A stretch of 32,000 nucleotides of DNA from a virus. The stretch is from the IMG/VR virus record IMGVR_UViG_3300047462_000400, positions 83,051-115,050 of that record; one strand, given 5' to 3'. Positions 3,116-23,638 of this stretch are shown piece after piece; within the stretch, counting starts at the first letter, position 1; each line of letters begins with the position of its first letter. The notes under the pieces are model-generated. The model had not been told where the DNA came from and ran no database searches. It was given only the letters and a program-made list of their open reading frames with translations. The translations under genes and the position numbers were made by a program.

Positions 3116-3609
3116 TAGAAGCGTCTCCCCATCGGTGGGTGTACGACGACGGTTCGCCCGTACGGGTTGTAGCCGCCGTATGGCGCCGCCGGCCGATAGG
3201 CCGCTGGCATCGACGGCATCTGTTGTCGGGGCACCCACTGCCGTCCATTCCATGCGAACGGGTTCGGTGCACCGAACTGCGGGAACACGGGCTGCTGCGG
3301 TACAGCCGCCGCCTGCTGCTGCTGCCACGCGAGCTGCCGCTCGCGCCAGTCATGGCGGAGCTGCCAGCGCGCGCCGTCCCACGAGTACGGACTCGGGGGG
3401 CTCGGCGTCTGCGGCACCACCGGCGGAGTCGGGACACCCGACGCCGGCACGGAGATGGTCTCGCCGGGCGCGAGAGAGATGAAGGTCTGGATGCCGTTGA
3501 CCCACGTGGTTGGCTTCTGCGGGTTCGCCGCCAGCATCTGGGCCATCGTGATCCCGAACCTGGCTGCGATTGTGGCGGGGCTATCCCCGTACTGCACTTG
3601 GTAGAGCAT
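3115..3609 (-). CDS. LysM domain protein (164 aa)
   Basis: MLYQVQYGDSPATIAARFGITMAQMLAANPQKPTTWVNGIQTFISLAPGETISVP fits LysM. It carries the same ANPxKPT insertion as the two other LysM paralogs. The ATG at 3609 overlaps the upstream TGA (TGATG). Confidence 0.8.
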   Translation of the reverse strand: MLYQVQYGDSPATIAARFGITMAQMLAANPQKPTTWVNGIQTFISLAPGETISVPASGVPTPPVVPQTPSPPSPYSWDGARWQLRHDWRERQLAWQQQQAAAVPQQPVFPQFGAPNPFAWNGRQWVPRQQMPSMPAAYRPAAPYGGYNPYGRTVVVHPPMGRRF

Positions 3610-5897
3610 CAGCGACTCCTCTTGCGACGACGACCACCTCTACTGCCTTTGCCTCCACCACCGCCGTGCGTGGCGAAGTAGATGACACCCCCGACAACGA
3701 CCGCGCCCGCGACGCCGATGCCAACTATCGCGCCGGTGCTCAGGCCGTGCTTCGTGGCCGTCGCCGCCGGAGCAGGCGTCGTCGTCGTCACGGGAGCAGG
3801 AGTAGGCGCTGGTGTTGGAGCCGGCGCGAGTGTCGCGCTCGGCGCGGGCGTCGCAGGGACGGGGGCGGGGATGGGCGGAGCTGGCGCGTTGCCGCCCGCC
3901 GGGAAAGCGTTCGGGAAGTCTTGCGCGTAAACGTGCGTCGTGTTCTGGAGCGCGGTCAGCGTGTCCTGATCGAGCACACCGTCAGTGCGCAGCGGCGTCG
4001 TCGTGATGCCGGCGGTGATCGTGGGGAGCTTGGCGTTGTTGACCCAGATCTGGAAGCACGCGACGGCCGCCTGGAGGTTCACGCCCGGGTCCACCCACGT
4101 CGGGCACGAGGTCCCGGTCGCCGAGGTGATCTGGCTGTTGAACGTCGCGAGGCTGTTCCGGATCCACGTCTGCTGGTCCGGCGTGAGACCCGCGAATGCG
4201 TCCGGATCGCCAGGACCATCGAGCGCAAACCCGCGGCAACCGCAGCCGCCGAGTGAGATGGATTCACCGAGGAACATCGTCGTCTCCTTGTCGCCTACAA
4301 TTCCGAACCCGGATGGCCTGCCCGCCCCGCCCGTCATGGCAGCGAGGTCGATCAGGGTGCTCGTGATGGTGTCGAGCCGACCAGTCGGTGACATGCCATG
4401 TGCGAGCTGGAACCGTGCGATGGCGCCCGCGGTGTTCGCACCGAAGTCGCCGTCGAGTCGGAGTCGCTCGCCGAGCCGGTTCAGCTGCTGTTGCGCCGCC
4501 CAGACTGCGGAACGGTCGTGCGAGAGATCCTGGATGCCGGTCTCCGCAATCCCACCGATTCCGGACGGCACAATCGGACCCCCGCCACGGTTGGCGTACT
4601 GGTCACCGCCGGATGGCCGCGGACCGAAGTAGAGGTTGCGACGGGTCCACTGCGGGATCGGTCCCGTGCAGTCCGCGCGCGGGGCGCACGGCGGCGTCTG
4701 CGGCGTCATGTTCTGCGCGTACCAGCAGGAGGCCGCACGGAGCCCTTCGTCGGTCGGTCCCTGCACCGGCACGTCGGTCACGAAGTCGTACTGACCCGTC
4801 GCTTGCGCCGGCGTGAGCGGCCGACCCGCAGGCGTGATCGTCGGTCGCCCCGGAAACTGGCCGATGTCCAGCGGGAAGCCCGCGACGTCGCGTCCACCGA
4901 ACACGTCGCGCGCCGACACGGGCACCGGCACCGGCACCGGAAGCACCACGAAGACCGGCGGAGGAGGAGGTGGGGGCGGAGCCGGCGGCAAGAACGCCCC
5001 CGGCGGCATCCCCGGGACCATCCCAGGCGGGAACATCCCCGGAGGGCCAGGCGGCGCCGGATAGTGGGGATGATGCGGAGGGTGGTGCGGGCGATGGTGC
5101 GGGTGACCGGGCGGATACACGCCCGGCTGCACCGCGACCGGAGGATGGTGCGGGTGGTGCGGATGACCCGGATGATGAGGGTGGTGAGGATGGTGCGGGT
5201 GCTGCCCCGGCTGCACGACCACTTCCCGTCCATGGTGGGGATGGTGGGGATGACCTGGATGGTGCGGGTGACCCGGATGCACCGCCTGCCCGTGCGGGTG
5301 CTGGGGGTGGTGCGGGTGCTGCGGATGGCCCGGATGATGAGGGTGGTGAGGATGGTGCGGGTGCTGCCCCGGCTGCACGACCACTTCCCGTCCATGGTGG
5401 GGATGGTGGGGATGACCTGGATGGTGCGGGTGACCCGGATGCACCGCCTGCCCGTGCGGGTGCTGGGGGTGGTGCGGGTGCTGCGGATGGCCCGGATGAT
5501 GAGGGTGCTGCGGGTGCTGAGGATGATGCCCCGGCGGCGGGTGATGACCCGGCTGGTGCTGCGGATGATGCTGCGCCTGCGGGTGCTGAGGATGGTGCGC
5601 CCCATGGTGCTGCGGATGGTGCGGGTGGGGCGGGACCTGCCCGTACGGCGTCTGCGGCTGCGTCATCGCCTCTTCCTTCTGCGCGAGCGCGTACCCGTGC
5701 ACCTGGACACCACCCAGCGAGATGGTCTCGCCGAGGTCGCCGCCGCGACCTTGCGCAGGACTCAATCCTTCGCGTCCTTGCGCAGGCCCAAACCCGGGAT
5801 TCGCGGGAGTCGGATAGAATCCGAACTGCCGCTTGAATCCGTCTCGGTCCGAGCAGTCCGAGCAACCCGACAGCGTTCCTTCTCGAGTGGCCGTCAC
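3609..5897 (-). CDS. His/Pro-rich repeat protein with PG_binding_1 domain and C-terminal TM anchor plus basic tail
   Basis: GTG start at 5897 overlaps the upstream TGA (GTGA). Long HPHHPGHPQHPHH tracts. VWAAQQQLNRLGERLRLDGDFGANTAGAIARFQLAHGMSPTGRLD matches the peptidoglycan-binding PG_binding_1 pattern. C-terminus is LSTGAIVGIGVAGAVVVGGVIYFATHGGGGGKGSRGGRRRKRSR. Confidence 0.8.
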   Translation of the reverse strand: MTATREGTLSGCSDCSDRDGFKRQFGFYPTPANPGFGPAQGREGLSPAQGRGGDLGETISLGGVQVHGYALAQKEEAMTQPQTPYGQVPPHPHHPQHHGAHHPQHPQAQHHPQHQPGHHPPPGHHPQHPQHPHHPGHPQHPHHPQHPHGQAVHPGHPHHPGHPHHPHHGREVVVQPGQHPHHPHHPHHPGHPQHPHHPQHPHGQAVHPGHPHHPGHPHHPHHGREVVVQPGQHPHHPHHPHHPGHPHHPHHPPVAVQPGVYPPGHPHHRPHHPPHHPHYPAPPGPPGMFPPGMVPGMPPGAFLPPAPPPPPPPPVFVVLPVPVPVPVSARDVFGGRDVAGFPLDIGQFPGRPTITPAGRPLTPAQATGQYDFVTDVPVQGPTDEGLRAASCWYAQNMTPQTPPCAPRADCTGPIPQWTRRNLYFGPRPSGGDQYANRGGGPIVPSGIGGIAETGIQDLSHDRSAVWAAQQQLNRLGERLRLDGDFGANTAGAIARFQLAHGMSPTGRLDTITSTLIDLAAMTGGAGRPSGFGIVGDKETTMFLGESISLGGCGCRGFALDGPGDPDAFAGLTPDQQTWIRNSLATFNSQITSATGTSCPTWVDPGVNLQAAVACFQIWVNNAKLPTITAGITTTPLRTDGVLDQDTLTALQNTTHVYAQDFPNAFPAGGNAPAPPIPAPVPATPAPSATLAPAPTPAPTPAPVTTTTPAPAATATKHGLSTGAIVGIGVAGAVVVGGVIYFATHGGGGGKGSRGGRRRKRSR
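5147..5507. repeat. 162-bp tandem repeat, about 2.2 copies, in frame (54 aa unit)
   Basis: By eye, the unit starting cccggatgatgagggtggtgagg at 5167 is repeated identically at 5329 (162/162). A partial third copy starts at 5491. It encodes HPGHPQHPHHPQHPHGQAVHPGHPHHPGHPHHPHHGREVVVQPGQHPHHPHHPH. Confidence 0.9.
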
Positions 5898-6748: not shown

Positions 6749-7357
6749 TCACAATCTCGGTCCGAGCAAAAGGGTGAGGTCAGGGACTTCGAAGCCGAGC
6801 TTCTTCAGGCGCTGGCGCGCATCGTCCTCGCTCATGTCATCGATCGTCTTATCGAGGAACTGCCAGCCGAGGAAGGTCAACGTGACGTCGAACGGCACGC
6901 TCACCGGCGTCTGCAAGAGCACCGCGCTCACCTTGACGTTGCTCTGCTTGTAAAGCGGCCAGCCCGCAGGCCAGGTGACCGCGAAGACGTCCACGAGGTT
7001 GCCGAGGTCCGTGAACGTGTCGTTGATGGCGTACTTCGGGCCGCCAAAGACCTGCATCTGGATGCCGACGCCGGTCTGGCCGCTCTGCTTCAACTGGTTG
7101 AAGTAGAGCGACTGGAGGGGGCTACCCGGAAAGCTGTTCTGCTGAAAGAGGTTGTACGAAACTCGCTCGATCAGCGTGTCCTGCGTCAGGTTGTTGTCGA
7201 AGCTCTGCACGACCGGCGGAGCGTTGACCGTGCTCGACGAGAACTGGAGCGGGATATCGACGATGAACGGCACACGCGGAACCCCCGCGAGCATGGCGAA
7301 CGCCACGCGCGGCGCGTAGAGCGCGAGGTTCTTGATGTCGTGGTCCCTCGGAAGCAT
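6749..7357 (-). CDS. hypothetical beta-rich protein (202 aa), candidate virion structural protein
   Basis: The ORF is open to a TTG at 7378. The ATG at 7357 has AGAGGA 6 nt upstream, so it is preferred. No family recognised. Confidence 0.65.
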   Translation of the reverse strand: MLPRDHDIKNLALYAPRVAFAMLAGVPRVPFIVDIPLQFSSSTVNAPPVVQSFDNNLTQDTLIERVSYNLFQQNSFPGSPLQSLYFNQLKQSGQTGVGIQMQVFGGPKYAINDTFTDLGNLVDVFAVTWPAGWPLYKQSNVKVSAVLLQTPVSVPFDVTLTFLGWQFLDKTIDDMSEDDARQRLKKLGFEVPDLTLLLGPRL

Positions 7358-7442: not shown

Positions 7443-8726
7443 TCAGGCCGACATCTGCGGCGACATGATCTGCTGCACCGCAGGCGGCGCAGACGGCGAC
7501 TGGCAGAATGCCTTCCAGCCGCCGGGCATCTCCCAGCCCTTGATCTTGATGCCGAGCTTCAGGATGCCGCCCTTGAAGACCTCCCGGCAAACGTTGACCG
7601 TCTGCGGTATGGGGACCGGTGCGGGGTCGAGCGTCTGCTCCAGCATCGCGGTCGCACTCGACAGGGTCGGCCCGCAGTTGATGTTCTGGTCCGGGGTGAT
7701 GTTCGTGCCCAGCGGCTCGTTCGTGATGGTGAGCGCCTGGAGCATGTTCGCCTGGTGAACGGCGTCCTGCACGGCGAACAGCATGCCGATGGGGATGCCT
7801 CGCTCGAGGAAGCACGGGCTCTCGACGGGCCGGTACATCTGGCCCTTGCACCCGTACCCCTGCCAGCGGAGACCGCCCCAGGTGACCGGCGCGAGGTCGA
7901 AGTCGCGCGTCGGGTGGAAGATGCCGATGTTGCCGGCGACCGGCGACGTCGTCGAGATCGAGCCCACGCGCCGGAAGTTGACCGGGAGGAAGATCGTCCC
8001 GGACCCCTTCGAGCGGTACTGCGCGTTCACGCTCGCCACGAACTCGATGACGGCGACCTCGGAGGTGCCCGCCGCCTCGGCGTCCGCGAAGGACCCGAAG
8101 TAGGAAACGTCAGCCGCCAGCTCGTTCAGCACGAGCTCGCGCTGGTTCGTCTTCCACTGGAACTGGTAGGCGTTGATGAAGTTCCAGCCCGCCCGCCACA
8201 CGTCCACACCCCACACGAACACGGCGGGGGAGAAGTTGTCGGAATCGGCCGTGACGGTCGCGCCCATCGCGCCGTTGGTGAGGTCGTTCGTCGTGAAGAC
8301 GTCCGGCGAAGGGGGGGGAGCCGTCGTCGTCGTCGGCGCGTTGAACGCATTGCCGATGGTCGAGAAGCTCATCGGCTCGCAGAAGACGTGGACGCCGACG
8401 CCGTGAGCGAGGATGTCCGTCTGGAGGATGCCGTTGATGAGGAACGTGGAGTCGATCGACTGCACGCCGGGGACCGCGGAGCTGCCCGAGAGCAGGTTCA
8501 CGGAGTCACCGAACGTGGAGGTCGCCTCCTCGAGCGTAAGGGGGAGGGGGACCGTCCAGACCACCTGCTCGATGACGGGGATGTTCCCGAACGAGCAACG
8601 CAGGCACTTCTCGGCCGCCTTCAGGTCGCCAGGCGCCTGACCGAGACCGAAGGGGATGCGGCGAACCTTCTCGCGGTCCTGGCCGAACCGCGAAGTCTTG
8701 CGCCCGATGATGCTTCTTCCAGCCAT
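7443..8726 (-). CDS. hypothetical 427-aa protein, candidate major structural (capsid) protein
   Basis: ATG at 8726 with AGGAGA 6 nt upstream, one of the clearest SD sites I saw in the window. A terminator-like hairpin lies upstream. Globular, beta-rich sequence. The capsid role is inferred from context only. Confidence 0.7.
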   Translation of the reverse strand: MAGRSIIGRKTSRFGQDREKVRRIPFGLGQAPGDLKAAEKCLRCSFGNIPVIEQVVWTVPLPLTLEEATSTFGDSVNLLSGSSAVPGVQSIDSTFLINGILQTDILAHGVGVHVFCEPMSFSTIGNAFNAPTTTTAPPPSPDVFTTNDLTNGAMGATVTADSDNFSPAVFVWGVDVWRAGWNFINAYQFQWKTNQRELVLNELAADVSYFGSFADAEAAGTSEVAVIEFVASVNAQYRSKGSGTIFLPVNFRRVGSISTTSPVAGNIGIFHPTRDFDLAPVTWGGLRWQGYGCKGQMYRPVESPCFLERGIPIGMLFAVQDAVHQANMLQALTITNEPLGTNITPDQNINCGPTLSSATAMLEQTLDPAPVPIPQTVNVCREVFKGGILKLGIKIKGWEMPGGWKAFCQSPSAPPAVQQIMSPQMSA

Positions 8727-11513: not shown

Positions 11514-12176
11514 TCAACGGATGCCGGGGTAGAGCAGATCCGGCGCAGTCGCTGGACCGCTGAGCGCGCCGTCGCCGCCGCCGCTCATCCCTACGAAGTC
11601 GCCATGCGCGACTGCACGCTGATCTTTTCCGGGCTCCACCCACCACTCGCGCGCGTGCGGCGCAACGCGACCAGCCGGGTGATTGGTCGTGCCGTCCATC
11701 TTCACCCAGTCGTCGAGCTCGTCCTGGAACGCCATGAAAACGTGCGTCGGAACGTCGACCGGGTCCTTGTAGCTGCTGCCGATAATCATGGCCGGGATGG
11801 CGATCGACATCAGCGCGGCAGCGAGCGCGATGGCTGCCTCGTCGCAGTCGCCGCCGATGATGCAGAGACCACCCTCGTCGAGGCAGAGCAGCTGGTCGGG
11901 CGTCGCCATGAACTCGCCCATGAGCGGGTCCGCGGCGTACGGAACCTTCTTCCGGAATGCATCGAGGATGCACTGAGCGATCTGGAGCCGACTGCTCTTC
12001 GACGGAGAGAGACCGCAGCTCGCGATCTGTTGCAGCACCCACGCGCGAAGGCGCGGTGACATGCGCGCTTTCCACGCGCGCGCTGCAACCTCCTCGAGCG
12101 ACATGAGCGCGCCCTTGCGGCCCGCCGGATGCGGACGTTGATCGAGCTGCACACCAGTGACGGGCTTATCGATCAT
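11514..12176 (-). CDS. transglutaminase-like cysteine protease fold protein (220 aa)
   Basis: Internal ATG (12176-12174) overlaps the upstream TGA (ATGA). GGDCDEAAIALAAALMSIAIPAMIIGSSY ... THVFMAF ... DWVKMDGT fits the Cys-His-Asp transglutaminase-core pattern. The upstream part of the 333-aa ORF is Arg-rich shadow sequence. Confidence 0.65.
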   Translation of the reverse strand: MIDKPVTGVQLDQRPHPAGRKGALMSLEEVAARAWKARMSPRLRAWVLQQIASCGLSPSKSSRLQIAQCILDAFRKKVPYAADPLMGEFMATPDQLLCLDEGGLCIIGGDCDEAAIALAAALMSIAIPAMIIGSSYKDPVDVPTHVFMAFQDELDDWVKMDGTTNHPAGRVAPHAREWWVEPGKDQRAVAHGDFVGMSGGGDGALSGPATAPDLLYPGIR

Positions 12177-13994: not shown

Positions 13995-14027
13995 CAGGAC
14001 GCCCTCCGTACCCCAGGTCTAGGTCGC

Positions 14028-16067: not shown

Positions 16068-16074
16068 CTACCCC

Positions 16075-16545
16075 TCAAGACGGTGCAGTCTGTCCATTCG
16101 TAACTGGCGCCTGCTCGGGCTCCGGATCTCCGGGCTCCGGCTCGGGCTCTGGCTCGTCCTCCTCGGCGGCGGCGAGCTCCTCCACGAAGACGTCGAGCGG
16201 CATCGCTTCCTCGATGAGCCGCACCCAGCTCATCGGAACGAGGTTGCGCATCCCGGCCTTGCCGTCGTCCGACACCGAGTAAACCTCGACGCCACCCCGG
16301 TCGACGAACATCCGCATGACCTTCATCTGCGGCACGAGCGGATGCGCCTGCCCGACGATCCACGTGATGGGCTCTTCCTTCGTGCTCTGTTCGAGGGAGA
16401 TGGACCCCTTGCAGTGCGGGCAGCCCACGGTCTTGGTCTGCGCTTCCGGGAAGAGTGCGTTCGAGATCATGCGCGTGAGCATCGGGAAGCCCGGCTCCGG
16501 CAGTACGACGTTCCTTGTGGCAGTGGTGCCGGTGGGCTGAGTCAT
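16075..16545 (-). CDS. hypothetical protein with acidic C-terminal tail (EEDEPEPEPEPGDPEPE)
   Basis: ORF track 156 aa. ATG at 16545 with GGAAGGAAAG upstream. Confidence 0.65.
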   Translation of the reverse strand: MTQPTGTTATRNVVLPEPGFPMLTRMISNALFPEAQTKTVGCPHCKGSISLEQSTKEEPITWIVGQAHPLVPQMKVMRMFVDRGGVEVYSVSDDGKAGMRNLVPMSWVRLIEEAMPLDVFVEELAAAEEDEPEPEPEPGDPEPEQAPVTNGQTAPS

Positions 16546-16590
16546 GAGAAAACTTTCCTTCCGATGGGCAAGCGGAATTGCGAGAACCCT

Positions 16591-17238
16591 TTACAGGGCT
16601 CCGTCTTCTGCGAACGAGTAGTAGCTCGGTCTCTCTACGTCCCCTCCGCAGATGATGTGGTCCATGAGGTCGATGTTCACGATGTCGAACGCCTTCACGA
16701 ACGCCTTCGTCGTGTCCTTGTCTGCCTGGCTGGGCTTCGCTTCGACGCCTGACGGGTGGACGTGGAAGAGGATGACGGCGTGCGCACCGTCGATCAGCGC
16801 AGCCTGGAGCGTCGGGACCATCGGTGCTGCCACGCTCGACGCTTCTCCACGACCGGTCTCCCACGACCCCACGTGAAGCAGATGCAGGTTGAGCGTCACG
16901 AGGCCGAAGACCTCGTTCACCTCACCGCCGATGAGCTCCTGGATGTACCGGAACGCCTTCTTGGGGTCGTTCAGCGGACCGATACTCTCCGCGAGCGCGT
17001 TGCACGCCGCGAACCGTTCCATGTCCTTCTGGGCCGTGAGGAACGGTCGACACCTTGGCTCTCCGGGCGGATTGAGCGGCATGGCCCCTGGTACCGAGTG
17101 CGGGCGGACCTGCTCGGCCACCTCTCGTGCACGGATTCCCGCGCCGACCGGCTCGTGGCACCCGCACCCCCCGTTGCCTCGCCGCCGCACGATTGCGTCC
17201 GGGTCGTAGACGACCCGAGCTGTCCGTTGCTGAATCAT
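16591..17238 (-). CDS. radC: RadC-like JAB/MPN domain protein
   Basis: Internal ATG at 17238 overlaps the upstream TGA (ATGA). VILFHVHPSGVEAKPSQADKDTTKAFVKAFDIVNIDLMDHIICGG matches the RadC signature H-x-HPSG...PS..D...T...DHII. The upstream 115 codons of the listed ORF are Arg/His shadow sequence. Confidence 0.7.
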   Translation of the reverse strand: MIQQRTARVVYDPDAIVRRRGNGGCGCHEPVGAGIRAREVAEQVRPHSVPGAMPLNPPGEPRCRPFLTAQKDMERFAACNALAESIGPLNDPKKAFRYIQELIGGEVNEVFGLVTLNLHLLHVGSWETGRGEASSVAAPMVPTLQAALIDGAHAVILFHVHPSGVEAKPSQADKDTTKAFVKAFDIVNIDLMDHIICGGDVERPSYYSFAEDGAL

Positions 17239-17606
17239 GCAGCGGCCTCCATCTTCTCGGTCTTCTCGGCCGGCTTGCCGTCGAGGTCGAGGCGGGTCGA
17301 GAGCGGGTTGCCGTCGAGCAGCGTGAAGTCGTCGAGGGTGACGTCGTGCACGCGGTGGATCACCTCGCTGACGAGAAAGGTGACGCGGTGGATGGCGCCG
17401 CCGCGGAAGAACTCGTCGTACACGGCCTTGCAGACGACGATGTCGCCGACGTTGTAGCCCGCATCGGTCGCTTCCTTGCTGACCGACTCGATGAGGTAGC
17501 AGCGCGTGTTGCCCTTCGCGCCGGCGTTCGGCGTGATGATGGTGCCGAGCATCTTGCTGACGATGGCGTGTCCAACGATCCAACTGTTGACCGGTTCGAG
17601 TCTCAC
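17235..17606 (-). CDS. hypothetical protein, possible GroES/Hsp10-like fold
   Basis: GTG start at 17606 overlaps the upstream TGA (GTGA). By eye the spacing resembles GroES (RLEPVNSWIVG ... GTIITPNAGAKG ... YNVGDIVVCKAVY ...). This is a weak call. Confidence 0.35.
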   Translation of the reverse strand: MRLEPVNSWIVGHAIVSKMLGTIITPNAGAKGNTRCYLIESVSKEATDAGYNVGDIVVCKAVYDEFFRGGAIHRVTFLVSEVIHRVHDVTLDDFTLLDGNPLSTRLDLDGKPAEKTEKMEAAA

Positions 17607-18070
17607 GGGGTGGTCTCCTTGAGTTCTGGGGTGTCCGCCGGGGGCGGTGTTGTTGTCTTTCCGCGAAGCGTTTCGAGCTCGGCCTGCGCTACGACCAGCT
17701 CGGCCATGATCTCGCTGAAGTGCTCGCGGCTGGGCGCAAAGTAAGACGCATCCGCTGGCCGTCGAGCGTCGATGGTAGCGAATTGACGCGCAGAGTTGAG
17801 CACGACGAGCGCTGACAGGCGGAGCTCCCGGTCCGGACAGTCACGGAGGCAGACCTCCGTCTCGCTCGCTTCGCCCGGACAGCCGGCGGTGTGTTTGCAG
17901 CCGGCGACCATCTCCGCCGCCGCGCGCCCTGCGATCTCCCAGGCGACTTTGCTGCGCCAGAGCGCGAGTTTCATCCCTTCCCAGTGCCGGAGCGGGACCT
18001 CGACTCGCTGGTCGCCAGGGTTGTCGAGCCCCATCATTGCTCGGGGATTGGCGCGAGGATTCGGGTTCAT
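17603..18070 (-). CDS. hypothetical protein (155 aa)
   Basis: Internal ATG at 18070 (MNPNPRANPR...) overlaps the TAA of the RHH gene (TAATG). The N-terminal part of the listed ORF overlaps that gene. Confidence 0.6.
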   Translation of the reverse strand: MNPNPRANPRAMMGLDNPGDQRVEVPLRHWEGMKLALWRSKVAWEIAGRAAAEMVAGCKHTAGCPGEASETEVCLRDCPDRELRLSALVVLNSARQFATIDARRPADASYFAPSREHFSEIMAELVVAQAELETLRGKTTTPPPADTPELKETTP

Positions 18071-18276
18071 TAGGTGGAGGCTCCGTTCGGTTCCCGGATG
18101 TACGTGTATCCCCTGTTGGACTGCCGGGTGGCTGCCTGAACGGCGATGTTCCGCAGCCACGCCCGCGTGGTCATCCCGCACTTCTCTGCGCGCTTCTCGA
18201 TGAGGCGCACCTGCTCGGCAGTGAATCGGACGGATAGCATGCGATCCTTGTGCTGCCGCTCTTCTCGATCCTTCAC
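18070..18276 (-). CDS. ribbon-helix-helix (CopG/MobC-like) DNA-binding protein
   Basis: LSVRFTAEQVRLIEKRAEKCGMTTRAWLRNIAVQAA is a typical RHH strand-helix-helix. The longest ORF starts at GTG 18276. An alternative ATG at 18240 has AAGGA 4 nt upstream and places Met directly before the beta strand. It is the first gene of the long minus-strand block. Confidence 0.7.
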   Translation of the reverse strand: MKDREERQHKDRMLSVRFTAEQVRLIEKRAEKCGMTTRAWLRNIAVQAATRQSNRGYTYIREPNGAST

Positions 18277-18307
18277 GCTGCCCTCCGCGACCTACGAACC
18301 TCCGCAG

Positions 18308-18328
18308 GGACTCCGCATGGACTCCGCG
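18308..18328. promoter_or_regulatory. tandem 11-mers GGACTCCGCA-TGGACTCCGCG, candidate operator in a divergent control region
   Basis: Same repeat as 11486-11507. It lies between the RHH gene start (18276, -) and the first + strand gene (18391). Additional CCTCCGC half-sites are present at about 18283-18306. Confidence 0.55.
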
Positions 18329-18332
18329 GGGG

Positions 18333-18362
18333 ATACTGCGCCCTGGCTTATAGACGTGTCAA
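18333..18362 (-). promoter_or_regulatory. sigma70-like promoter candidate for the RHH-led minus-strand block
   Basis: Minus strand reads TTGACA (18362-18357), an 18-nt spacer, then CAGTAT (18338-18333). The predicted start would fall inside the 11-mer repeats. Confidence 0.3.
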
Positions 18363-18390
18363 GACGGCCCGCGGTAAACTCCGATGTGCG

Positions 18391-18828
18391 ATGCCCCAGT
18401 ACGGTGCTGATCCGAAGCTTGCGGAACAGTGCCCGCAGGTCCCCACCCCCAGCGGTTGGCGGCCTTGGACTGACGCGGATGGGCCGGTGCCGGACGCCCT
18501 CTCCAAACGCGCGCAGGCGATAGCATCCGACCAGACCATCCCGCTCGGGACGACCGAGAGCTATCCGCTGCCCGGCGTCACGACGCTCATCCGTATCGAA
18601 CCGCGCGTGTGGGGAAAGGACGCGCAGGGGAACCTCGTCCAAGGATGCTTTCGGGTCGGCGGCATCTACCTCCCCGTCTCCGCCTCCGCGCTCGCGAACG
18701 GCGGGGTCACGCCCCCGTCGGCGAGCACCTGGGATTGGGGTAAAACAGTAACGGTCCTCACCGCCGCGAGCTTGGCGGTCGGAACGGTTGCGACGGTGAT
18801 GACCTTGCGCGCGGAGAAGAAGTTGTGA
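18391..18828 (+). CDS. hypothetical protein with C-terminal TM anchor
   Basis: The ATG at 18391 was chosen because the longer ORF (18250) overlaps the RHH gene. C-terminus is TVTVLTAASLAVGTVATVMTLRAEKKL. Confidence 0.6.
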   Translation: MPQYGADPKLAEQCPQVPTPSGWRPWTDADGPVPDALSKRAQAIASDQTIPLGTTESYPLPGVTTLIRIEPRVWGKDAQGNLVQGCFRVGGIYLPVSASALANGGVTPPSASTWDWGKTVTVLTAASLAVGTVATVMTLRAEKKL

Positions 18829-19649
18829 CGATGGCCGACTGGTGTGACCGCGCACGCGCACGCCTCCTCGAGATGGAGACGCTCATCAAGGAGGGGCGGG
18901 GCAGCACGCTCGTGGCCGGCGGCGGTTGCACGGACCCCGGCGGTGGCATCGTGCCGACGACGCGCACCGCCCACGAGATGGCAGCAATGCTGCGCGATCA
19001 GCTCAGCAATCACGGCTCGTGCGTCGAACCGCAATCGCCGCCACCGTTCGGACAACCGCTCGACCACATCGGCGGCTCGTACGACTGGTGGTGGTGGAAC
19101 TTCGGCCGGACGGCGGGGATGCCGTACAACCCCACCGGCCGTCCCAACGTCGAACTTGCGAGAGACGAGGTTCGCCGTCGCCTGAACCGTCCATCGTGGG
19201 GACGGGGAGTAGGGCTCACGCTGCTTCACCATCCCAACGGAGCGCCGTACGACGCAGTGCTCGTGCAGGTGCAGCGTCCGGAGCATGTCGCGCTCGCGCG
19301 CCAGCTTGTGGGCGCGCAGACCGATCAGCTCTACGGCATTCCCATCGTGTACGAGGCCGTCGGAGACATCGTCGCCGCTCCCGCAGGTCCCACCGCGGTA
19401 CCCGGTGAACCGGGTCGCTACGTCTGGCAGGACGGGCGCACGGAACCATCCCCGCGCGAGCTCGCCGCCGTGCTGCGCAACGGTTCGCCGATCGGCTTCG
19501 GGCAAGGAGAGACAGTCGTCGCGCCGGTCGCCGCCGCCTCAGCATCCCCCTGGCCGTTCGTGCTTGCGACGAGCATGGTGGGCGCGGCAACGAGCTGGGT
19601 CATCGAGGAGATCGCGCAAAGCTTTCGCGGCAAACGGAGAAGTCGATGA
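18825..19649 (+). CDS. hypothetical protein with C-terminal TM anchor and basic tail
   Basis: GTG start overlaps the upstream TGA (GTGA). C-terminus is PWPFVLATSMVGAATSWVIEEIAQSFRGKRRSR. Confidence 0.65.
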   Translation: MTMADWCDRARARLLEMETLIKEGRGSTLVAGGGCTDPGGGIVPTTRTAHEMAAMLRDQLSNHGSCVEPQSPPPFGQPLDHIGGSYDWWWWNFGRTAGMPYNPTGRPNVELARDEVRRRLNRPSWGRGVGLTLLHHPNGAPYDAVLVQVQRPEHVALARQLVGAQTDQLYGIPIVYEAVGDIVAAPAGPTAVPGEPGRYVWQDGRTEPSPRELAAVLRNGSPIGFGQGETVVAPVAAASASPWPFVLATSMVGAATSWVIEEIAQSFRGKRRSR

Positions 19650-19786
19650 GCTGCTCGGTCCTCTACCGGTCCCCATGGACGAGGCCCCCCGAGCCCCCGC
19701 GCGCGCCGCCGCCAGCATGGCCGATGGTTGCCCTCATGCTCGGCATCCTCATCGCGCTCATCGCGGTGATCGTGGAGAGCCAATGA
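19646..19786 (+). CDS. small membrane protein (46 aa), not in ORF track
   Basis: My translation is MSCSVLYRSPWTRPPEPPRAPPPAWPMVALMLGILIALIAVIVESQ. There are ATGA overlaps at both ends (19646-19649 and 19783-19786). Confidence 0.5.
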   Translation: MSCSVLYRSPWTRPPEPPRAPPPAWPMVALMLGILIALIAVIVESQ

Positions 19787-20409
19787 TTCGGTTCGGCGGC
19801 AGGCCAGTGCCGGGATTCGCGCTCGGCGACACGGACCCGTACATCGAGAGCGAGAATAACCTCCAGACGCAGATGCAGCCGGCGATCGAGCTCGGCGACC
19901 AGTACATCTCTGGCGCGCGGCAAGTTCCCGGTGGGTTCCCGTGGATCATTCAAAAGGCCCCGTGGGCGGCAGCACTCGATGCTTACGAGAAGGCGGCCAA
20001 CATCGGCATGGCCACCGTCGCTACCGGTATCGACGCCGCAGGGCACACGGACGTCACGAAGCCCTTCACCGACAAGGCGGCGGACGCAGGCAAGCAAGTC
20101 GTCGCGCTCGCCAACCAGTGGGTGGTTAGCAGCGCGGACGCCACGCACGCGAGCATGCTCGTGAAGAGCATGGTGAATAGCTACACGAAGGCCATCGCGG
20201 CAGGTCGTGCAGCGATTGGAATAGTGGCACCCCCGCAGCAATCGCAGCAGGGTTCGCAGGGTTCGCAACCGCTGCCGATGCCCAGCACCGGCGGCGCGCC
20301 GGGCTGGTACGTCCTCATTCCGGTCACCATCGTCGCCGCTGCTGGTGGGGTGTATCTTGCGACCAGGAAGGCAAAGGCACCGGATGGAGACCATCTATCG
20401 CGGCGGTAG
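19783..20409 (+). CDS. hypothetical protein, N-terminal GGRPVPGF motif, C-terminal TM anchor
   Basis: Internal ATG at 19783 is coupled by ATGA to the small ORF upstream. Sequence is MIRFGGRPVPGFALGD... ending ...GWYVLIPVTIVAAAGGVYLATRKAKAPDGDHLSRR. Confidence 0.65.
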   Translation: MIRFGGRPVPGFALGDTDPYIESENNLQTQMQPAIELGDQYISGARQVPGGFPWIIQKAPWAAALDAYEKAANIGMATVATGIDAAGHTDVTKPFTDKAADAGKQVVALANQWVVSSADATHASMLVKSMVNSYTKAIAAGRAAIGIVAPPQQSQQGSQGSQPLPMPSTGGAPGWYVLIPVTIVAAAGGVYLATRKAKAPDGDHLSRR

Positions 20410-20896
20410 GCCGGTTGCCGGCTTCAACGTGGGGGTCGGCGGCCTCATCGTCTTCGCCGAGGACATTGAGGCCGAGCAGGCGCGCATGCTGGCCACCGCG
20501 CAGAACATCGACACCGCCGTGGATGCGTGCGCCGCGCTCGACCAGACGACGCGCACGCAGTGGAAGACGTTCTTCGCAGACCTCGCGCGGTTCGCACACC
20601 AGAAGGTCTGCAACGTTCCGTTCCCCGGTCGCGGATGCGACCTCTACGCAACCGCGAACCTGGGGGACACGACCGTCGCGTACGAAGGGCAGCTCCAGGC
20701 GTGGGGGAAGAAGCTCTCCACCTGCGCGAACATGCCACCCGAGTTCGAGGTCACGAAGTCGCGGCCGATCAGCCTCGACTCGCTGGTCGGTCCGTCAGGG
20801 ACGGACGTCCTCAAGTACGTCGTCATCGGTGTCGCCATCGTCGGCGGCGTGTACGTGACGAGCCAGGTCATCGCCGTCATCCGGAAGAAGCCATGA
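20384..20896 (+). CDS. hypothetical protein, N-terminal GGRPVAGF motif, C-terminal TM anchor
   Basis: Internal ATG at 20384: METIYRGGRPVAGFNVGVGG... C-terminus is LKYVVIGVAIVGGVYVTSQVIAVIRKKP. Confidence 0.65.
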   Translation: METIYRGGRPVAGFNVGVGGLIVFAEDIEAEQARMLATAQNIDTAVDACAALDQTTRTQWKTFFADLARFAHQKVCNVPFPGRGCDLYATANLGDTTVAYEGQLQAWGKKLSTCANMPPEFEVTKSRPISLDSLVGPSGTDVLKYVVIGVAIVGGVYVTSQVIAVIRKKP

Positions 20897-21429
20897 GTCG
20901 TAACCTCCGTATCGCGCACCTGCCGTCGATGCACCCGCGCTTGCGGTTCTCCGGGTACCTCACCGACCCGAAGGTCACCGACCAGCGCCTGATGGAAGCG
21001 CTCGGCCCGTTCTTCGTGAACCTGAAGCTCTGGCGCACCAGCAACGCGCTGCCGAACGACTGGCCGACCCAGGACGACAGCATGATTCAGAGCCCCCCGA
21101 CCGGGGTCACGCCGATCTGGGGCGAGGGAGACGACACCTCCGCGGCCGTCTACATCGGCGACCCGGAGACGCCGTGGCGGCTCCTCGTCGGCAGCGGACA
21201 GCTCGTCATCGAAAACGTCTGGCTGTTCGACGCGCAGGCGGACCCGTGGCCTGCTGCGCTGGCTCCGTGCCCGACCGTCGTCTGCCCACCCATCACGAAC
21301 TGCCCGCCGTCCTTCATGGACGAGACGGTGCGCCCACCGAGCCAGTGTAATGCCGTACCCATCGGCGTGCTCGGTGCGGCGCTCGGCGTGACTGCCACGG
21401 CGGCCGGACTCTGGTGGTGGAAGTCGTGA
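20893..21429 (+). CDS. hypothetical Cys/Pro-containing protein with C-terminal TM anchor
   Basis: ATG at 20893 overlaps the upstream TGA (ATGA). C-terminus is VPIGVLGAALGVTATAAGLWWWKS. Confidence 0.65.
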   Translation: MSRNLRIAHLPSMHPRLRFSGYLTDPKVTDQRLMEALGPFFVNLKLWRTSNALPNDWPTQDDSMIQSPPTGVTPIWGEGDDTSAAVYIGDPETPWRLLVGSGQLVIENVWLFDAQADPWPAALAPCPTVVCPPITNCPPSFMDETVRPPSQCNAVPIGVLGAALGVTATAAGLWWWKS

Positions 21430-21647
21430 AGACCTGGCGGATCGTCCAGCACATCTACGAAGAGAACGACCCGGAGCCGGTGCTCACGCACGTCTTCTAC
21501 GGCGACACACCTGCGGCGTCGCAGCACATCTTTGACGCACACATGCAGACCGACTCGTTCATGCGCGAGTGCGTCGAGCGCCATCGTTTCCGCAACTTTT
21601 CCTGCCGCGCGGTCGCGCAGCTCGAGAACCGCAACGAGCGCGTCTGA
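21426..21647 (+). CDS. small hypothetical soluble protein
   Basis: GTG at 21426 overlaps the upstream TGA (GTGA); alternative GTG at 21414. G/C-rich third positions throughout. Confidence 0.55.
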   Translation: MKTWRIVQHIYEENDPEPVLTHVFYGDTPAASQHIFDAHMQTDSFMRECVERHRFRNFSCRAVAQLENRNERV

Positions 21648-21677
21648 CTGCTCAGCCGGCGGTGCTACTTTAGAGAG

Positions 21678-21941
21678 GTGGACCCCTCTATCGCGGCGCA
21701 GGTCGCCTCACACGGCCTGCTCGGTGTCCTGCTCGTCGCGGTGACTTGGGCGTACTGGACCAAGGACAAGGAGCTCAAAGCAGAGCGAGACTTACGCATC
21801 GCGGACGCGAAGGCGTACACCGACCTGGCGCTCAAGCTCCAGGCGCAGGTGATCGACTCCGTCAACAAGCTGGCGGAGACCTTCGACGAGATGAAGAAGA
21901 TGATGGCCCCGCGGACGGGACCGGAGAGGACTTCCCGATGA
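21678..21941 (+). CDS. small protein with N-terminal TM segment and coiled-coil-like tail (holin- or spanin-like architecture only)
   Basis: GTG start. HGLLGVLLVAVTWAYW is followed by KDKELKAERDLRIADAKAYTDLALKLQAQVIDSVNKLAETFDEMKKMM. Confidence 0.55.
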   Translation: MDPSIAAQVASHGLLGVLLVAVTWAYWTKDKELKAERDLRIADAKAYTDLALKLQAQVIDSVNKLAETFDEMKKMMAPRTGPERTSR

Positions 21942-22135
21942 GCGAATCATCCATCAGGGCACCCCGCAGCGTGAGTGGTCAGCACCCGGCCGTGCAGGCG
22001 TACCGGAAGAGGCTCGACAGCGTCGAAACCGGCGCATCGGCGGCGACCACCGAGCTCGATCGCAAGCTGTCGGAGTACCTGCACGACATCAAGACGCCCG
22101 TCCCGCCCCCGCCCGAGCGACCCGGCGCGCCCTAG
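21938..22135 (+). CDS. small hypothetical protein (65 aa)
   Basis: ATG at 21938 overlaps the upstream TGA (ATGA). Its TAG stop shares the tetranucleotide CTAG (22132-22135) with the stop of the convergent gene. Confidence 0.5.
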   Translation: MSESSIRAPRSVSGQHPAVQAYRKRLDSVETGASAATTELDRKLSEYLHDIKTPVPPPPERPGAP

Positions 22136-22305
22136 TGCGGCGTGATCTCGGGCAGCGCGACCACCTCGAGCCGGCCGCCGGGAAACAGGACCAAGAAGGC
22201 TAATCCGCCCTGCACGACCCCCTTCGTCAGTCTCGGGATCCCGTCCTCATCCTCGTCGCAGGGGATCGGGCAGAAGAGCTCGACCTCGTCCCCGACCGCC
22301 GTCAC
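22132..22305 (-). CDS. small hypothetical protein (57 aa)
   Basis: GTG at 22305 overlaps the upstream TGA (GTGA), the same pattern as the rest of the window. Sequence is TAVGDEVELFCPIPCDEDEDGIPRLTKGVVQGGLAFLVLFPGGRLEVVALPEITPH. Confidence 0.4.
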   Translation of the reverse strand: MTAVGDEVELFCPIPCDEDEDGIPRLTKGVVQGGLAFLVLFPGGRLEVVALPEITPH

Positions 22306-22559
22306 CGCGTGAGCTGCGGAGGCTGCGGTGCGGGCGGGGGCGCAGGCTCGCCGGCGGCTGCACCGGCGACGAACGCACCGAGCACTGCACCGGCGGCGGC
22401 GCCGACAACCATGGCGTCCTCCACCTCGGGACCGTGCGGCTGCTCCGCGTAGCTGTAGCGCGGCCTGGTCTTCGCTGCGTACTTGCCGGCTTGCGCGCCG
22501 AGTAGCGCACCACCGATTGCGCCGAGGGCGCTCCACAATCCGGTCTTTGCGTTGCTCAT
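22302..22559 (-). CDS. glycine-zipper membrane protein (85 aa)
   Basis: Internal ATG at 22559. MSNAKTGLWSALGAIGGALLGAQAG and VVGAAAGAVLGAFVAGAAAG contain GxxxG-type zippers. Confidence 0.55.
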   Translation of the reverse strand: MSNAKTGLWSALGAIGGALLGAQAGKYAAKTRPRYSYAEQPHGPEVEDAMVVGAAAGAVLGAFVAGAAAGEPAPPPAPQPPQLTR

Positions 22560-22566
22560 GGCTGCA

Positions 22567-22875
22567 TCATCCCCAGATCGCGCCGGCCACGCCACCGACG
22601 ACCGCACCGAGGATTGCTCCCCTGCCGGCCCATCCACCCTGAACGGCACCCGTCTCCATGTACGAGAGGCCCGCTCCGGCTCCGGCGCCGAGGAGGCCCA
22701 GCGTCGCCGCACCGAGCACGACGTTCTCTGCGCGGTTCACGGTGCTGGCGGCGGCGGACTGCCCGACCCCCCAGAGACCCGTGACGTCACACATCGGATC
22801 GCCCGCCGCGCAGCGTTGACCCACGCCGAAGCCTTGCACGGCCCGACCGCCCAGCATGATCGATTCGTTCATCAT
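22567..22875 (-). CDS. glycine-zipper membrane protein with N-terminal ESIMLGGRAVQGF motif
   Basis: ATG at 22875 overlaps the upstream TGA (ATGA). C-terminus is GAILGAVVGGVAGAIWG. Confidence 0.55.
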   Translation of the reverse strand: MMNESIMLGGRAVQGFGVGQRCAAGDPMCDVTGLWGVGQSAAASTVNRAENVVLGAATLGLLGAGAGAGLSYMETGAVQGGWAGRGAILGAVVGGVAGAIWG

Positions 22876-23075
22876 GGCCTCATGATCCTCCGGCGGACGG
22901 CGTCGACCGCCCACCCCACCGTGCCACCCACGATTGCACCCGGCGGTCCCGCGATGGCCGCTCCGAGTCCAGCTCCGACGCTCGCGAGCACCACCGTCTC
23001 CTTGCCAACCGGCAGGATGTTCGGCGGGGTGACCACCTCGCTCTCAGCGAGCTCGCGGATGCGGTCCTGCGCCAT
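22872..23075 (-). CDS. glycine-zipper membrane protein (67 aa)
   Basis: ORF track entry. Contains ASVGAGLGAAIAGPPGAIVGGTVGWAV. Confidence 0.55.
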   Translation of the reverse strand: MAQDRIRELAESEVVTPPNILPVGKETVVLASVGAGLGAAIAGPPGAIVGGTVGWAVDAVRRRIMRP

Positions 23076-23078
23076 GCT

Positions 23079-23510
23079 TCAGTTTACCGCGAAGATGGCG
23101 GATTGGTCGGTGATCTCCTCGCCGCCCACCGCGACCTCGTAAGGGGTCATGTAGATCACGACCATGACCGGAATCTCCTGCCGGCGCGCGATGACCAGCC
23201 AGAAGGCGTCGGACTCGAAGGGGAGCGACACGACGCCGTGCGCCGACTTGTCGATGAGCGCGTGCGCGAAGAACGGGATCGGGTTGCCCGCGTTGTCCTC
23301 CTTCATCTGCCGCACGAACTCGTTGCGCGTCTTCACGTTGACGCCGCTCGGGTCCGACTCCGACACGACGAGCACGAGGTCGCCGGTGTGGAGGTGATGG
23401 CGACCTTCCTTGTACGCACCGTAGAGCTCCGTCGGCGTGAAGAGGCGACCGACCAGCCGCTTGCATTCGTCGGTGGTCCCCTGCGCGAACTCGAGCCCCT
23501 TCTTCAGCAT
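23079..23510 (-). CDS. hypothetical protein (143 aa)
   Basis: ORF track entry, ATG at 23510. Globular composition; no family recognised. Confidence 0.6.
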   Translation of the reverse strand: MLKKGLEFAQGTTDECKRLVGRLFTPTELYGAYKEGRHHLHTGDLVLVVSESDPSGVNVKTRNEFVRQMKEDNAGNPIPFFAHALIDKSAHGVVSLPFESDAFWLVIARRQEIPVMVVIYMTPYEVAVGGEEITDQSAIFAVN

Positions 23511-23529
23511 GCAATCAATGGTAACACCG

Positions 23530-23559
23530 TTGACAGTGTTAGGGCAGCGTGCTTACGCT
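23530..23559 (+). promoter_or_regulatory. sigma70-like promoter candidate for the PTH2/tRNA-like unit
   Basis: TTGACA at 23530-23535, then TACGCT after an 18-nt spacer (or TTACGC after 17). The inverted repeat AACAC/GTGTT flanks the -35. Confidence 0.3.
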
Positions 23560-23638
23560 GAGCCTCGCATGAAGCCACTGCCACTCTGAGTCGCCGCTCA
23601 TCCACTACGTCATCCTCCGAGCTGACCTCCCCAAGGGG

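Follow-up and report, generated by a model that had tools for sequence, protein, structure and literature searches.

A short glycine-rich peptide motif on otherwise unrelated tail-anchored proteins of a high-GC virus family: a probable address or processing tag

A peptide motif of 16–17 residues recurs on membrane-anchored proteins encoded in a 32,000-nucleotide stretch of viral DNA (IMG/VR record IMGVR_UViG_3300047462_000400, positions 83,051 to 115,050; hereafter the window), part of an element that is at least 116 kb long. The motif is restricted to one family of uncultivated viruses with high-GC genomes of 60–160 kb, its N-terminal placement is genuine, and it is coupled to C-terminal membrane anchors. 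Most probably it serves as an address or processing tag that is peculiar to this family and has no described counterpart. An earlier inspection of the DNA letters, here called the sequence-only reading, had drawn attention to six copies in five proteins and had proposed a targeting or assembly signal, a maturation site or a docking strand unlike any known signal. That interpretation is partly supported, in that the motif is a real signal-like module of a type that does not match the known ones.

All six peptides of the sequence-only reading were reproduced from the translated window, with the same letters, coordinates and strands. Four stand at N-termini, first read as MIRFGGRPVPGFALGD (19783, plus strand), METIYRGGRPVAGFNVG (20384, plus strand), MICYGGHPVVGFADAP (26848, minus strand) and MMNESIMLGGRAVQGFGVGQ (22875, minus strand), and two, ETISLGGVQVHGYAL and ESISLGGCGCRGFALDG, are internal to a minus-strand open reading frame (ORF) at 3609–5897. 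The count of six was too low, however. A looser six-frame scan revealed a seventh copy, RDVFGGRDVAGFPLD, in that same peptidoglycan (PG)-binding frame, ORF E (minus strand, ~nt 4866–4910), so that the window holds seven copies (three of them in ORF E) for an expectation of about 0–0.1. An eighth, ETISFGGRPVQGFALG (MxETISFGGRPVQGFALG), belongs to a 76-aa protein of the same element, encoded ~6 kb to the left of the window edge (L049:19680-19910; L numbers are our locus labels).

This recurrence is far above the expectation of a background model, the check on which the earlier claim had been made to depend. When the window was randomised by triplet shuffling (300 sequences) or with an order-2 Markov model (200 sequences), the mean count of the strict pattern I..GG..[VC].G[FY] was 0.000–0.005, compared with six observed, and that of the core GG..V.G[FY] was 0.08–0.12, again compared with six. 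A profile hidden Markov model (HMM) seeded with 41 distinct instances, the window's own copies included, gave exactly seven matches in the six-frame translation of the window, at 17–29 bits (A 29.1, B 27.8, C 27.2, D 26.0, E3 20.6, E1 20.1 and E2 17.1), the next best match scoring 4.7 bits. The Gly, Val and Phe codons vary synonymously among the copies (GGC/GGT/GGA; GTG/GTT/GTC; TTC/TTT), implying selection on the peptide, not a DNA repeat or a DNA or RNA element.

Once refined, the consensus reads E-[TS]-[IVL]-x-[RFLY]-G-G-R-P-V-x-G-F-[GA]-[LV]-G, with about 14 conserved positions on both sides of the Gly-Gly and nine residues beyond it (R-P-V-x-G-F-x-L-G). Gly-Gly is invariant across the 41 instances, with a hydrophobic residue three positions upstream; the invariance of G4, G5, G10 and F11 is in part a product of the search pattern, since tolerated variants such as F-N-G-R-P-V-A-W-F-G-V-G are seen when gene families are compared. 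About what would be two glycine turns, small residues take turns with hydrophobic ones (I1, position 3, V8, F11 and L13). In the 15 residues that follow, P/S/T/G/D-type residues are mildly enriched (0.66 compared with 0.58), and this Pro/Asp/Ser/Gly-rich stretch suggests that the motif is a tethered module.

Four of the five carriers, proteins A to D, bear the motif at the N-terminus (Table 1). The choice of start codon matters here, and external gene calls were preferred because the window, at 68% G+C and Gly-rich, is full of spurious ORFs. Independent calls in public assemblies of the same element give proteins of 208 (A), 170 (B), 166 (C) and 101 (D) residues, with starts identical to those of the sequence-only reading except for D, which in a near-identical contig is called from the second of two adjacent ATGs. 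With these starts the motif begins 0–5 residues after the initiating Met in all four. Shine-Dalgarno (SD)-like sequences lie at suitable spacing before A, B and D; the start of C is 18 nt past an upstream stop, and that of D overlaps the stop of an upstream 67-aa gene (ATGATGA). Homologues in related contigs keep the motif 0–6 residues behind an ATG, which answers the earlier concern that wrongly chosen starts might place it at unconserved internal positions. An identical 170-aa protein B is recorded in seven contigs, and members of its family in L040, L043, L054 and L098 all retain the motif. The extreme N-terminal placement originally claimed therefore stands for A to D; it fails for the family of ORF E, in which the motif is internal.

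The opposite end of these proteins is equally distinctive. All five carriers, where four had been claimed, have a hydrophobic segment within the last ~45 residues, followed in most by a short basic tail (RKKP, RKAKAP..., GGRRRKRSR). Transmembrane (TM) segments were called with a 17-residue Kyte-Doolittle window at a threshold of ≥1.5 instead of a dedicated predictor; by this measure the first hydrophobic window starts at residue 171 of 208 in A, 140 of 170 in B, 140 of 166 in C and 52 of 102 in D, and a C-terminal TM segment is present in all five motif proteins compared with 6 of 33 other window proteins (Fisher p = 9e-4). Between motif and anchor the proteins are unrelated, as the sequence-only reading had held: BLASTP among the five cores, trimmed of both, found no mutual similarity. 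An iterative jackhmmer search seeded with B drew in A and E-family proteins, a link that we read as profile drift through motif and TM segment since the trimmed cores share no BLASTP similarity; A and B may nevertheless be distant paralogues.

Table 1. Motif copies, their carriers and the principal conserved genes, in window coordinates
Feature	Position	Strand	Description and basis
Motif copy A, MIRFGGRPVPGFALGD	19783..19830	+	At residue 1 of protein A; translation, HMM; SD-like GGAG 5 nt 5' of the ATG
Protein A, 208 aa	19783..20409	+	N-terminal motif, variable domain, C-terminal TM segment at ~aa 171-193, basic tail RKAKAP...
Motif copy B, ETIYRGGRPVAGFNVG	20387..20434	+	Residues 2-17 of protein B; translation, HMM
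Protein B, 170 aa	20384..20896	+	N-terminal motif, variable domain, C-terminal TM segment, tail RKKP
Motif copy C, MICYGGHPVVGFADA	26804..26848	-	At residue 1 of protein C; translation, HMM
Protein C, 166 aa	26348..26848	-	N-terminal motif, variable domain, C-terminal TM segment; gene call L047 5673-6173
Motif copy D, ESIMLGGRAVQGFGVGQ	22816..22866	-	Translation, HMM
Protein D, ~101-102 aa	22567..22875	-	N-terminal motif, Gly-zipper-like C-terminal hydrophobic segments
ORF E, up to 762 aa	3609..5897	-	Translation, PG_binding_1 match
Motif copy E1, ETISLGGVQVHGYALAQ	5679..5729	-	Translation, HMM; no start codon with SD nearby
Motif copy E2, RDVFGGRDVAGFPLD	4866..4910	-	New; HMM; pipeline's 446-aa call begins ~17 codons upstream
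Motif copy E3, ESISLGGCGCRGFALD	4218..4265	-	Translation, HMM; position conserved in E-family homologues
427-aa protein, family marker	7443..8726	-	Probable jelly-roll-type major capsid protein; conservation, AlphaFold2, Foldseek
202-aa protein	6749..7357	-	Possible second capsid or penton protein; adjoins 427-aa gene; median identity 71.5%, 32 loci
220-aa transglutaminase-like (papain-fold) Cys-His-Asp enzyme	11514..12176	-	Transglut_core; candidate protease for the Gly-Gly site

The fifth carrier, ORF E, is built in the order E1, His/Pro-rich repeats, E2, a C.DC.GPIP.W segment, PG_binding_1 (E = 3.1e-12, aa 463–512), E3, a PG-binding-like C-module, a Pro/Thr linker, a TM segment and an Arg-rich tail. 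Of this frame the public pipeline recognises no more than the final 446 or 466 codons, and over the His-rich repeats it has an antisense ORF of 288 aa; the status of copy E1 is less certain for this reason, as its part of the frame is not called. The minus-strand frame is argued to be coding by the PG_binding_1 match together with the presence of three motif copies in one frame. The repeats themselves (~4970–5600, minus strand) comprise ~250 His/Pro/Gln-rich residues with a near-perfect tandem duplication of ~55 residues (GREVVVQPGQHPHHPHHPHHPGHP...), and GC content by codon position is uninformative over them because of their amino-acid bias.

In every member of the E family the motif is internal, ~20 residues past the C.DC.GPIP.W segment and ahead of the PG-binding-like C-module, implying that the motif does not need a free N-terminus, unless one arises there by cleavage or by initiation within the frame. 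Internal initiation is conceivable at E3, where a perfect SD (AAGGAG), a 6-nt spacer and an in-frame ATG six codons before the motif (window 4218–4283, minus strand) suggest a nested 222-aa product that would start with it. An SD and ATG just before the internal motif recur in two or three of five other E-family homologues examined, being present in L022 and L030; they are missing in L001 and L012, and the idea that the internal copies are always the N-termini of nested products is thus only partly supported.

How widely is the motif distributed? We searched 2.9 million IMG/VR contigs with two degenerate DNA patterns. The first, I..GGRPV.GF, was found in eight places, six of them in contigs that encode the 427-aa marker protein of the family, and the remaining two are chance matches, low in GC and non-N-terminal. 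The second, GGR.V.GF[GA][LV]G, was found in 16 places, eight of them in contigs with the 427-aa protein. In JGI metagenomes the first pattern has at least 120 matches, which are mostly due to chance and serve as an internal control; the chance matches lack N-terminal placement, the extended motif and a TM segment. Among 120 of these metagenome matches, an ATG 0–6 codons upstream goes with the extension GF[GAS][LVI] (odds ratio 47, p = 4e-10), and N-terminal placement goes with a C-terminal TM segment (odds ratio 36, p = 6e-8). Genes in common with the window are present at 12 of the 17 loci of the N-terminal class, the other five being shorter than 2 kb, compared with none of the remaining 103. 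A motif-profile search of a word-indexed protein database, an approach unsuited to so short a motif, gave 15 candidates with a single 60-aa match.

Within gene families the motif is better conserved (47–69% identity) than the rest of the protein (24–44%), and it is retained in homologues on contigs whose G+C content ranges from 59 to 71%. Related genomes have several copies, often in tandem genes, as for A and B here; there are three or four in L041 and L043 and three in L022 and L116. One carrier, a 58-aa protein of L004 (minus strand, ~nt 700–880), consists of the motif, a Pro/Ser linker and a TM segment with a basic tail, and nothing else. The TM segment of this small protein is homologous to the C-terminus of a motif-free 272-aa protein of the window, which is evidence for modular shuffling of motif and anchor.

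What might such a module do? Our preference, held tentatively and at somewhat less than even confidence, is that it is a lineage-specific address peptide, by which one viral partner gathers tail-anchored membrane proteins into one assembly. Docking through a short linear recognition element is favoured because the peptide is conserved, modular, restricted to one lineage and carried by otherwise unrelated tail-anchored proteins. The ~14 conserved positions astride the Gly-Gly are more than a bare protease site needs and, taken with the alternation of hydrophobic and small residues, suggest an amphipathic hairpin or strand that would plug into a pocket. One conserved viral protein would then bind the peptide and so recruit diverse tail-anchored proteins, most plausibly to a virion-associated membrane beneath a jelly-roll capsid, and the Gly-Gly might in addition be cut during maturation by a papain-fold (transglutaminase-like) cysteine enzyme. 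Several anchored proteins carry PG_binding_1 or LysM domains and no export signal, as would suit components of the virion with a role at the cell wall during entry. A more specific version, in which this is an undescribed lineage of jelly-roll bacterial viruses of 60–160 kb whose tail-anchored proteins are docked by the hairpin in a capsid pocket and clipped at Gly-Gly by a papain-fold protease, is in our view rather unlikely to hold in every part.

A number of results weigh against the docking reading. The proposed partners, namely the capsid-like 427-aa protein, its 202-aa neighbour and the transglutaminase-like enzyme, are candidates only, and the capsid assignment of the 427-aa protein is based on Foldseek matches to its model that are non-significant (best E 0.014–0.03, TM-score ~0.1). 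L028 and L029, in which the 427-aa protein is 45% identical, have no motif copy within ±10 kb, and four members of the E family keep only the first half, G-L-G-E-T-[IV], having lost GG..V.GF. When the word-indexed protein database was searched for homologues of B, nothing but B itself was found. Anchored proteins of 113, 178, 266 and 272 aa in the same element are without the motif, so that the tag is not required for anchoring as such. Finally, neither the window nor a set of 71 related-locus proteins yielded a recognisable terminase, portal, HK97 capsid, prohead protease or packaging ATPase, leaving an internal membrane as something that can only be inferred.

Proteolytic maturation is a serious rival to docking, since the Gly-Gly is invariant, a papain-fold enzyme is conserved in the element and the E copies lie at domain junctions. 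In this alternative a transglutaminase-like enzyme would cut at or next to the Gly-Gly, the flanks serving only for recognition; a leader of 5–9 residues would be removed from A to D, and ORF E would be split at its three copies, which lie at domain boundaries, into His-rich, PG-binding and membrane-anchored pieces. Papain-fold proteases of viruses and cells commonly cut after Gly-Gly, among them adenain at (M/L/I)XGG↓X, pS273R of African swine fever virus, ubiquitin-like proteases and C39 peptidases, and transglutaminase-like proteases of the LapG type cut near the N-terminus at a doublet of small residues. The window's own enzyme, which the sequence-only reading had named as a transglutaminase-like protease, is by sequence correctly assigned to that family: the Transglut_core match has E = 6.3e-4 for the window's 220-aa protein (20.4 bits, short of the cut-off of 23) and 7.7e-7 for the best of its homologues, and C111, H145 and D161 are invariant in 22 homologues, distant ones included. 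Its gene lies in a long minus-strand operon with the capsid-like genes and is among the best conserved of the element (65% median identity across loci). It could equally be a transglutaminase or an amidase, however, and nine conserved residues past the Gly-Gly are unusual for the P' side of a cleavage site. The upstream hydrophobic residue, moreover, falls at P5, whereas the adenain consensus has it at P4; loss of so short a leader has no obvious purpose; and the other structural proteins (427, 728, 666 and 679 aa) have no copy, the HMM falling directly to its next score of 4.7 bits. On balance we consider it unlikely that the motif is chiefly a cleavage site.

Docking as we favour it calls for a receptor, and a second alternative dispenses with one: the hairpins of the tail-anchored proteins would pair with each other, by beta-augmentation or in a shared small barrel or sheet, to build a hetero-oligomeric membrane complex. 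Several copies per genome, often in tandem genes, and three in the single chain of E would suit such pairing, and the alternation of hydrophobic and small residues around two Gly turns may fit an amphipathic hairpin; the near-identical consensus in distant members, on the other hand, suggests a fixed external site and not co-evolving partners. Proteins reduced to motif plus TM segment are compatible with either reading. We regard self-association as distinctly unlikely.

Less likely again is an export or topology signal that takes the N-terminal domain across the host membrane without Sec or Tat, giving an N-out, C-in orientation with periplasmic PG-binding domains. The basic C-terminal tails (RKKRRR and similar) agree with a cytoplasmic C-terminus under the positive-inside rule, the PG_binding_1 domain of E works outside the cytoplasm, and the carriers have no signal peptide. 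Yet the LysM-bearing 266-aa protein and other anchored proteins do without the motif, which in the E family lies downstream of a large N-terminal region and which has no hydrophobic core; nor was a translocase-like gene recognised in the family-library scans. The chance that the peptide is instead a membrane-active, fusion-loop-like segment exposed at entry seems very slim. Its carriers do resemble class I fusion subunits in build, having a Gly/Phe-rich peptide at the N-terminus, then an ectodomain, and at the C-terminus a TM segment and a short tail, and viral fusion peptides have a similar Gly/Phe/Leu content; the motif is only weakly hydrophobic, however, and contains an acidic residue as well as a conserved Arg-Pro, and each genome has it on five to eight different proteins, with three copies inside one PG-binding protein. 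Coincidence in a proteome rich in Gly, Pro and Val, or a nucleic-acid signal near gene starts whose translations simply look alike, might be suspected from the 68% G+C, Gly-rich window and from the four copies at gene starts, and is refuted for practical purposes by the randomisations (six observed for at most 0.005 expected), the 12-bit gap to the next HMM match, the synonymous codon differences, the three internal copies, the conservation in homologues across contigs of 59–71% G+C, and the random metagenome matches, which lack N-terminal placement, extension and TM segment.

The motif differs from the export and processing signals that might be expected at such N-termini, and the earlier statement that it is not Sec, Tat, lipobox or prepilin-like is borne out by Kyte-Doolittle profiles, sequence inspection and NCBIfam. 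Sec signals have a basic n-region, an h-region of 7–15 residues and a cleavage site, to which Tat signals add S/T-R-R-x-F-L-K, and lipoproteins carry the lipobox [LVI][ASTVI][GAS]C. Near the N-terminus of the carriers there is no hydrophobic segment of the Sec type and no twin-arginine motif. They also have no signal peptide that could precede a lipobox; a Cys occupies motif position 2 in 5 of the 41 instances, without the preceding lipobox residues. Prepilins have a short leader that ends in Gly and is cut before Phe or Met, followed by a hydrophobic helix of ~20 residues with Glu+5. The very short N-terminal leader and invariant Gly-Phe of the motif recall class III prepilins, but here [GA]-[LV]-G comes after Gly-Phe and leads into a linker that is polar or rich in Pro, and A, C, D and E have neither a hydrophobic helix of ~20 residues nor Glu+5; the carriers are anchored in the membrane by their other end; and NCBIfam gave no prepilin-type N-terminal domain at E ≤ 5.

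Double-glycine leaders, found on class II bacteriocins and lantibiotics, are 15–30 residues long, with the pattern LSxxELxxIxGG (Ile at -4, Glu at -8), and are removed by a C39 peptidase that is usually fused to an ATP-binding cassette (ABC) transporter. Our motif likewise is an N-terminal peptide with Glu, Ile and Gly-Gly, and the peptidase that cuts those leaders has a papain fold. In contrast, the Gly-Gly here is 5–9 residues from the Met, its Ile and Glu lie at -5 and -7, and strong conservation continues beyond it; neither Peptidase_C39 nor an ABC transporter was matched in the window or in the 71 related-locus proteins.

Adenovirus pVI and pVII, which combine docking with cleavage, are the best precedent by analogy. 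Adenain, a virion-packaged protease of the Peptidase_C5 (adenain/Ulp1-like) family, cuts at (M/L/I)XGG↓X or (M/L/I)XGX↓G. The N-terminal peptides of pVI and pVII occupy the same pocket of the hexon, the jelly-roll major capsid protein, before the viral cysteine protease cuts them, and pVI, which is active on membranes, is kept beneath the capsid (10.1101/857581). The present element likewise brings together an N-terminal peptide with Gly-Gly, a predicted papain-fold Cys-His-Asp enzyme and a capsid-like protein of two predicted beta domains. There is no sequence similarity between the two systems, however, and the hydrophobic residue of I-x-x-G-G is at P5 here, compared with P4 for adenain. The enzyme here is transglutaminase-like, and the family-library scans gave no match to Peptidase_C5; the carriers here are C-tail-anchored and the host is presumably bacterial.

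Two further systems use short targeting peptides with which the motif can be compared. The capsid-targeting sequence of T4, of ~10 residues, addresses the scaffolding core of an HK97-fold prohead and is afterwards removed by the prohead protease. It is a short conserved N-terminal peptide, the sole common feature of highly diverse internal proteins, and directs them into the assembling particle (PMC3012670). The likeness is confined to the principle that diverse proteins have an N-terminal tag in common, since the T4 cargo is soluble, is packed with DNA in an HK97-fold head and is cut after Glu, whereas the proteins described here are membrane-anchored and bear an unrelated sequence. Encapsulin cargo-loading peptides are short and Gly-rich, with spaced hydrophobic residues and flexible linkers, and dock in a conserved pocket on the inner face of the shell. 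They are, in contrast, usually C-terminal, belong to soluble cargo of an HK97-fold shell without a membrane anchor, and show no sequence similarity to the motif. Among the types considered, then, the motif appears from its sequence to be a member of no described signal family, and would at most function like the adenovirus, T4 and encapsulin peptides. The comparison with the PRD1-like lineage, which has a double jelly-roll major capsid protein and an internal membrane, turns on the 427-aa protein, whose model has two beta-rich halves and Foldseek matches that are non-significant.

Shared targeting peptides are rare and useful: the T4 sequence and the encapsulin peptides explained how particles choose their contents and became engineering tools. 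Here a single 16-residue tag marks five to eight otherwise unrelated membrane-anchored proteins per genome, in a virus family that is abundant in soil and peat metagenomes, whose genes are almost wholly unannotated and which is essentially undescribed as a lineage. If the motif is truly a sorting or maturation signal, it would give a first handle on which of these dark-matter proteins share one assembly, would predict a receptor site on a conserved structural protein, and would set up a testable parallel between bacterial jelly-roll viruses and maturation of the adenovirus type. Should jelly-roll docking and Gly-Gly clipping both prove correct, this would be the first dedicated signal for sorting and processing at the virion membrane in a prokaryotic virus. 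The motif can also be used as a compact diagnostic signature for members of the lineage.

The wider element offers few other points of reference. Megablast of window positions 14000–32000 against phage and plasmid collections gave no match, and scans of the carriers and most of their neighbours with Pfam, PHROGs and NCBIfam recognised only PG_binding_1, LysM, collagen repeats, a weak GDSL match, Rv2525c-like and RadC proteins and a weak Transglut_core. Related-locus scans with protein B and with the 679-aa protein found nothing. The family is instead defined by the 427-aa protein, which is found on 30 IMG/VR contigs of up to 125 kb, with 67–76% identity on most of them and 45–46% on two. One of the divergent pair, L029 (IMGVR_UViG_3300045391_004661), has 41% G+C compared with 59–71% in the rest of the family, and its match to the marker gene contains an in-frame stop. 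More broadly, the protein, which carries no annotation in any of the collections, forms at least 419 clusters at 90% identity, on contigs of up to 159 kb, and 184 representative clusters among 1.84 billion proteins. Its only matches in genome bins are to metagenome-assembled genomes of Binatia and Polyangiaceae, a weak hint as to the host.

An AlphaFold model of the 427-aa protein from a diverse alignment (A6; model m77394e0f0b53) has a mean pLDDT confidence of 86.7 and a pTM score of 0.85; a shallow alignment (70–80% identity) had given a poor model, with pLDDT 34. Two beta-rich halves, residues ~50–225 and 244–400, each have an interposed helix. The top Foldseek matches, non-significant as they are, are almost all jelly-roll capsids, including papillomavirus L1, birnavirus VP2, capsids of CRESS viruses and, at rank 44, PRD1 P3, and profile searches with the 427-aa and 220-aa families against Protein Data Bank (PDB) sequences found nothing significant. 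On the model, the protein is a probable jelly-roll-type capsid protein and possibly a double jelly roll; if it is truly the latter, genomes of 60–160 kb would be unusually large for such a bacterial virus. Residues 1–33 form a disordered arm, MAGRSIIGRKTSRFGQDREKVRRIPFGLGQAPGD, that loosely resembles a split motif (S-I-x-G-R ... R-x-[IV]-P-F-G-L-G); F26, G27, L28 and G29 are invariant in the family, and the motif HMM does not detect the arm. By a rough composition estimate, the resemblance of the second half of the motif to RRIPFGLG of the arm is not above chance, with three extra F[GA][LV]G occurrences for roughly one expected.

The adjoining 202-aa protein has no family match in the library scans, and a 282-aa protein has a median identity of 57% across loci. 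None of 41 window proteins has a Walker A motif, [AG]xxxxGK[ST], or matches an ATPase family; the element extends over at least 116 kb, of which the window covers 32 kb, so that a gene for an FtsK/HerA-type ATPase may lie elsewhere.

Tail-anchoring seems to be a general design of the element. Further proteins with a single C-terminal TM segment and a basic tail, and no motif, are those of 113, 272, 178, 266 (LysM-bearing) and 236 aa (18487–21429, plus strand; 12173–12973 and 27426–28136, minus strand), the anchor of the 272-aa protein having been read from its sequence since the Kyte-Doolittle test did not flag it. The plus-strand operon at 18487–21429 encodes five C-tail-anchored proteins in a row. 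Divergent from this A/B operon, the region 16591–18276 (minus strand) encodes two ORFans together with a 68-aa NikA-like protein and a 215-aa JAB protein that is RadC-like.

Three long overlapping ORFs on both strands occupy 24062–25823. The minus-strand ORF of 547 aa has a collagen G-X-Y repeat (Pfam, 2.4e-45) and matches tail-fibre PHROGs; the minus frame at 24333–25718 has the highest G+C content at third codon positions (0.89), and the plus-strand ORF at 24561–25823 is the choice of the public gene caller. A phage integrase on one related locus hints at a temperate or plasmid-like lifestyle. Finally, to the left of the window (L049:16627-20495), the 76-aa motif protein is accompanied by a 675-aa ORFan, a family 2 glycosyltransferase of 336 aa and a protein with a weak match to dual-specificity phosphatases.

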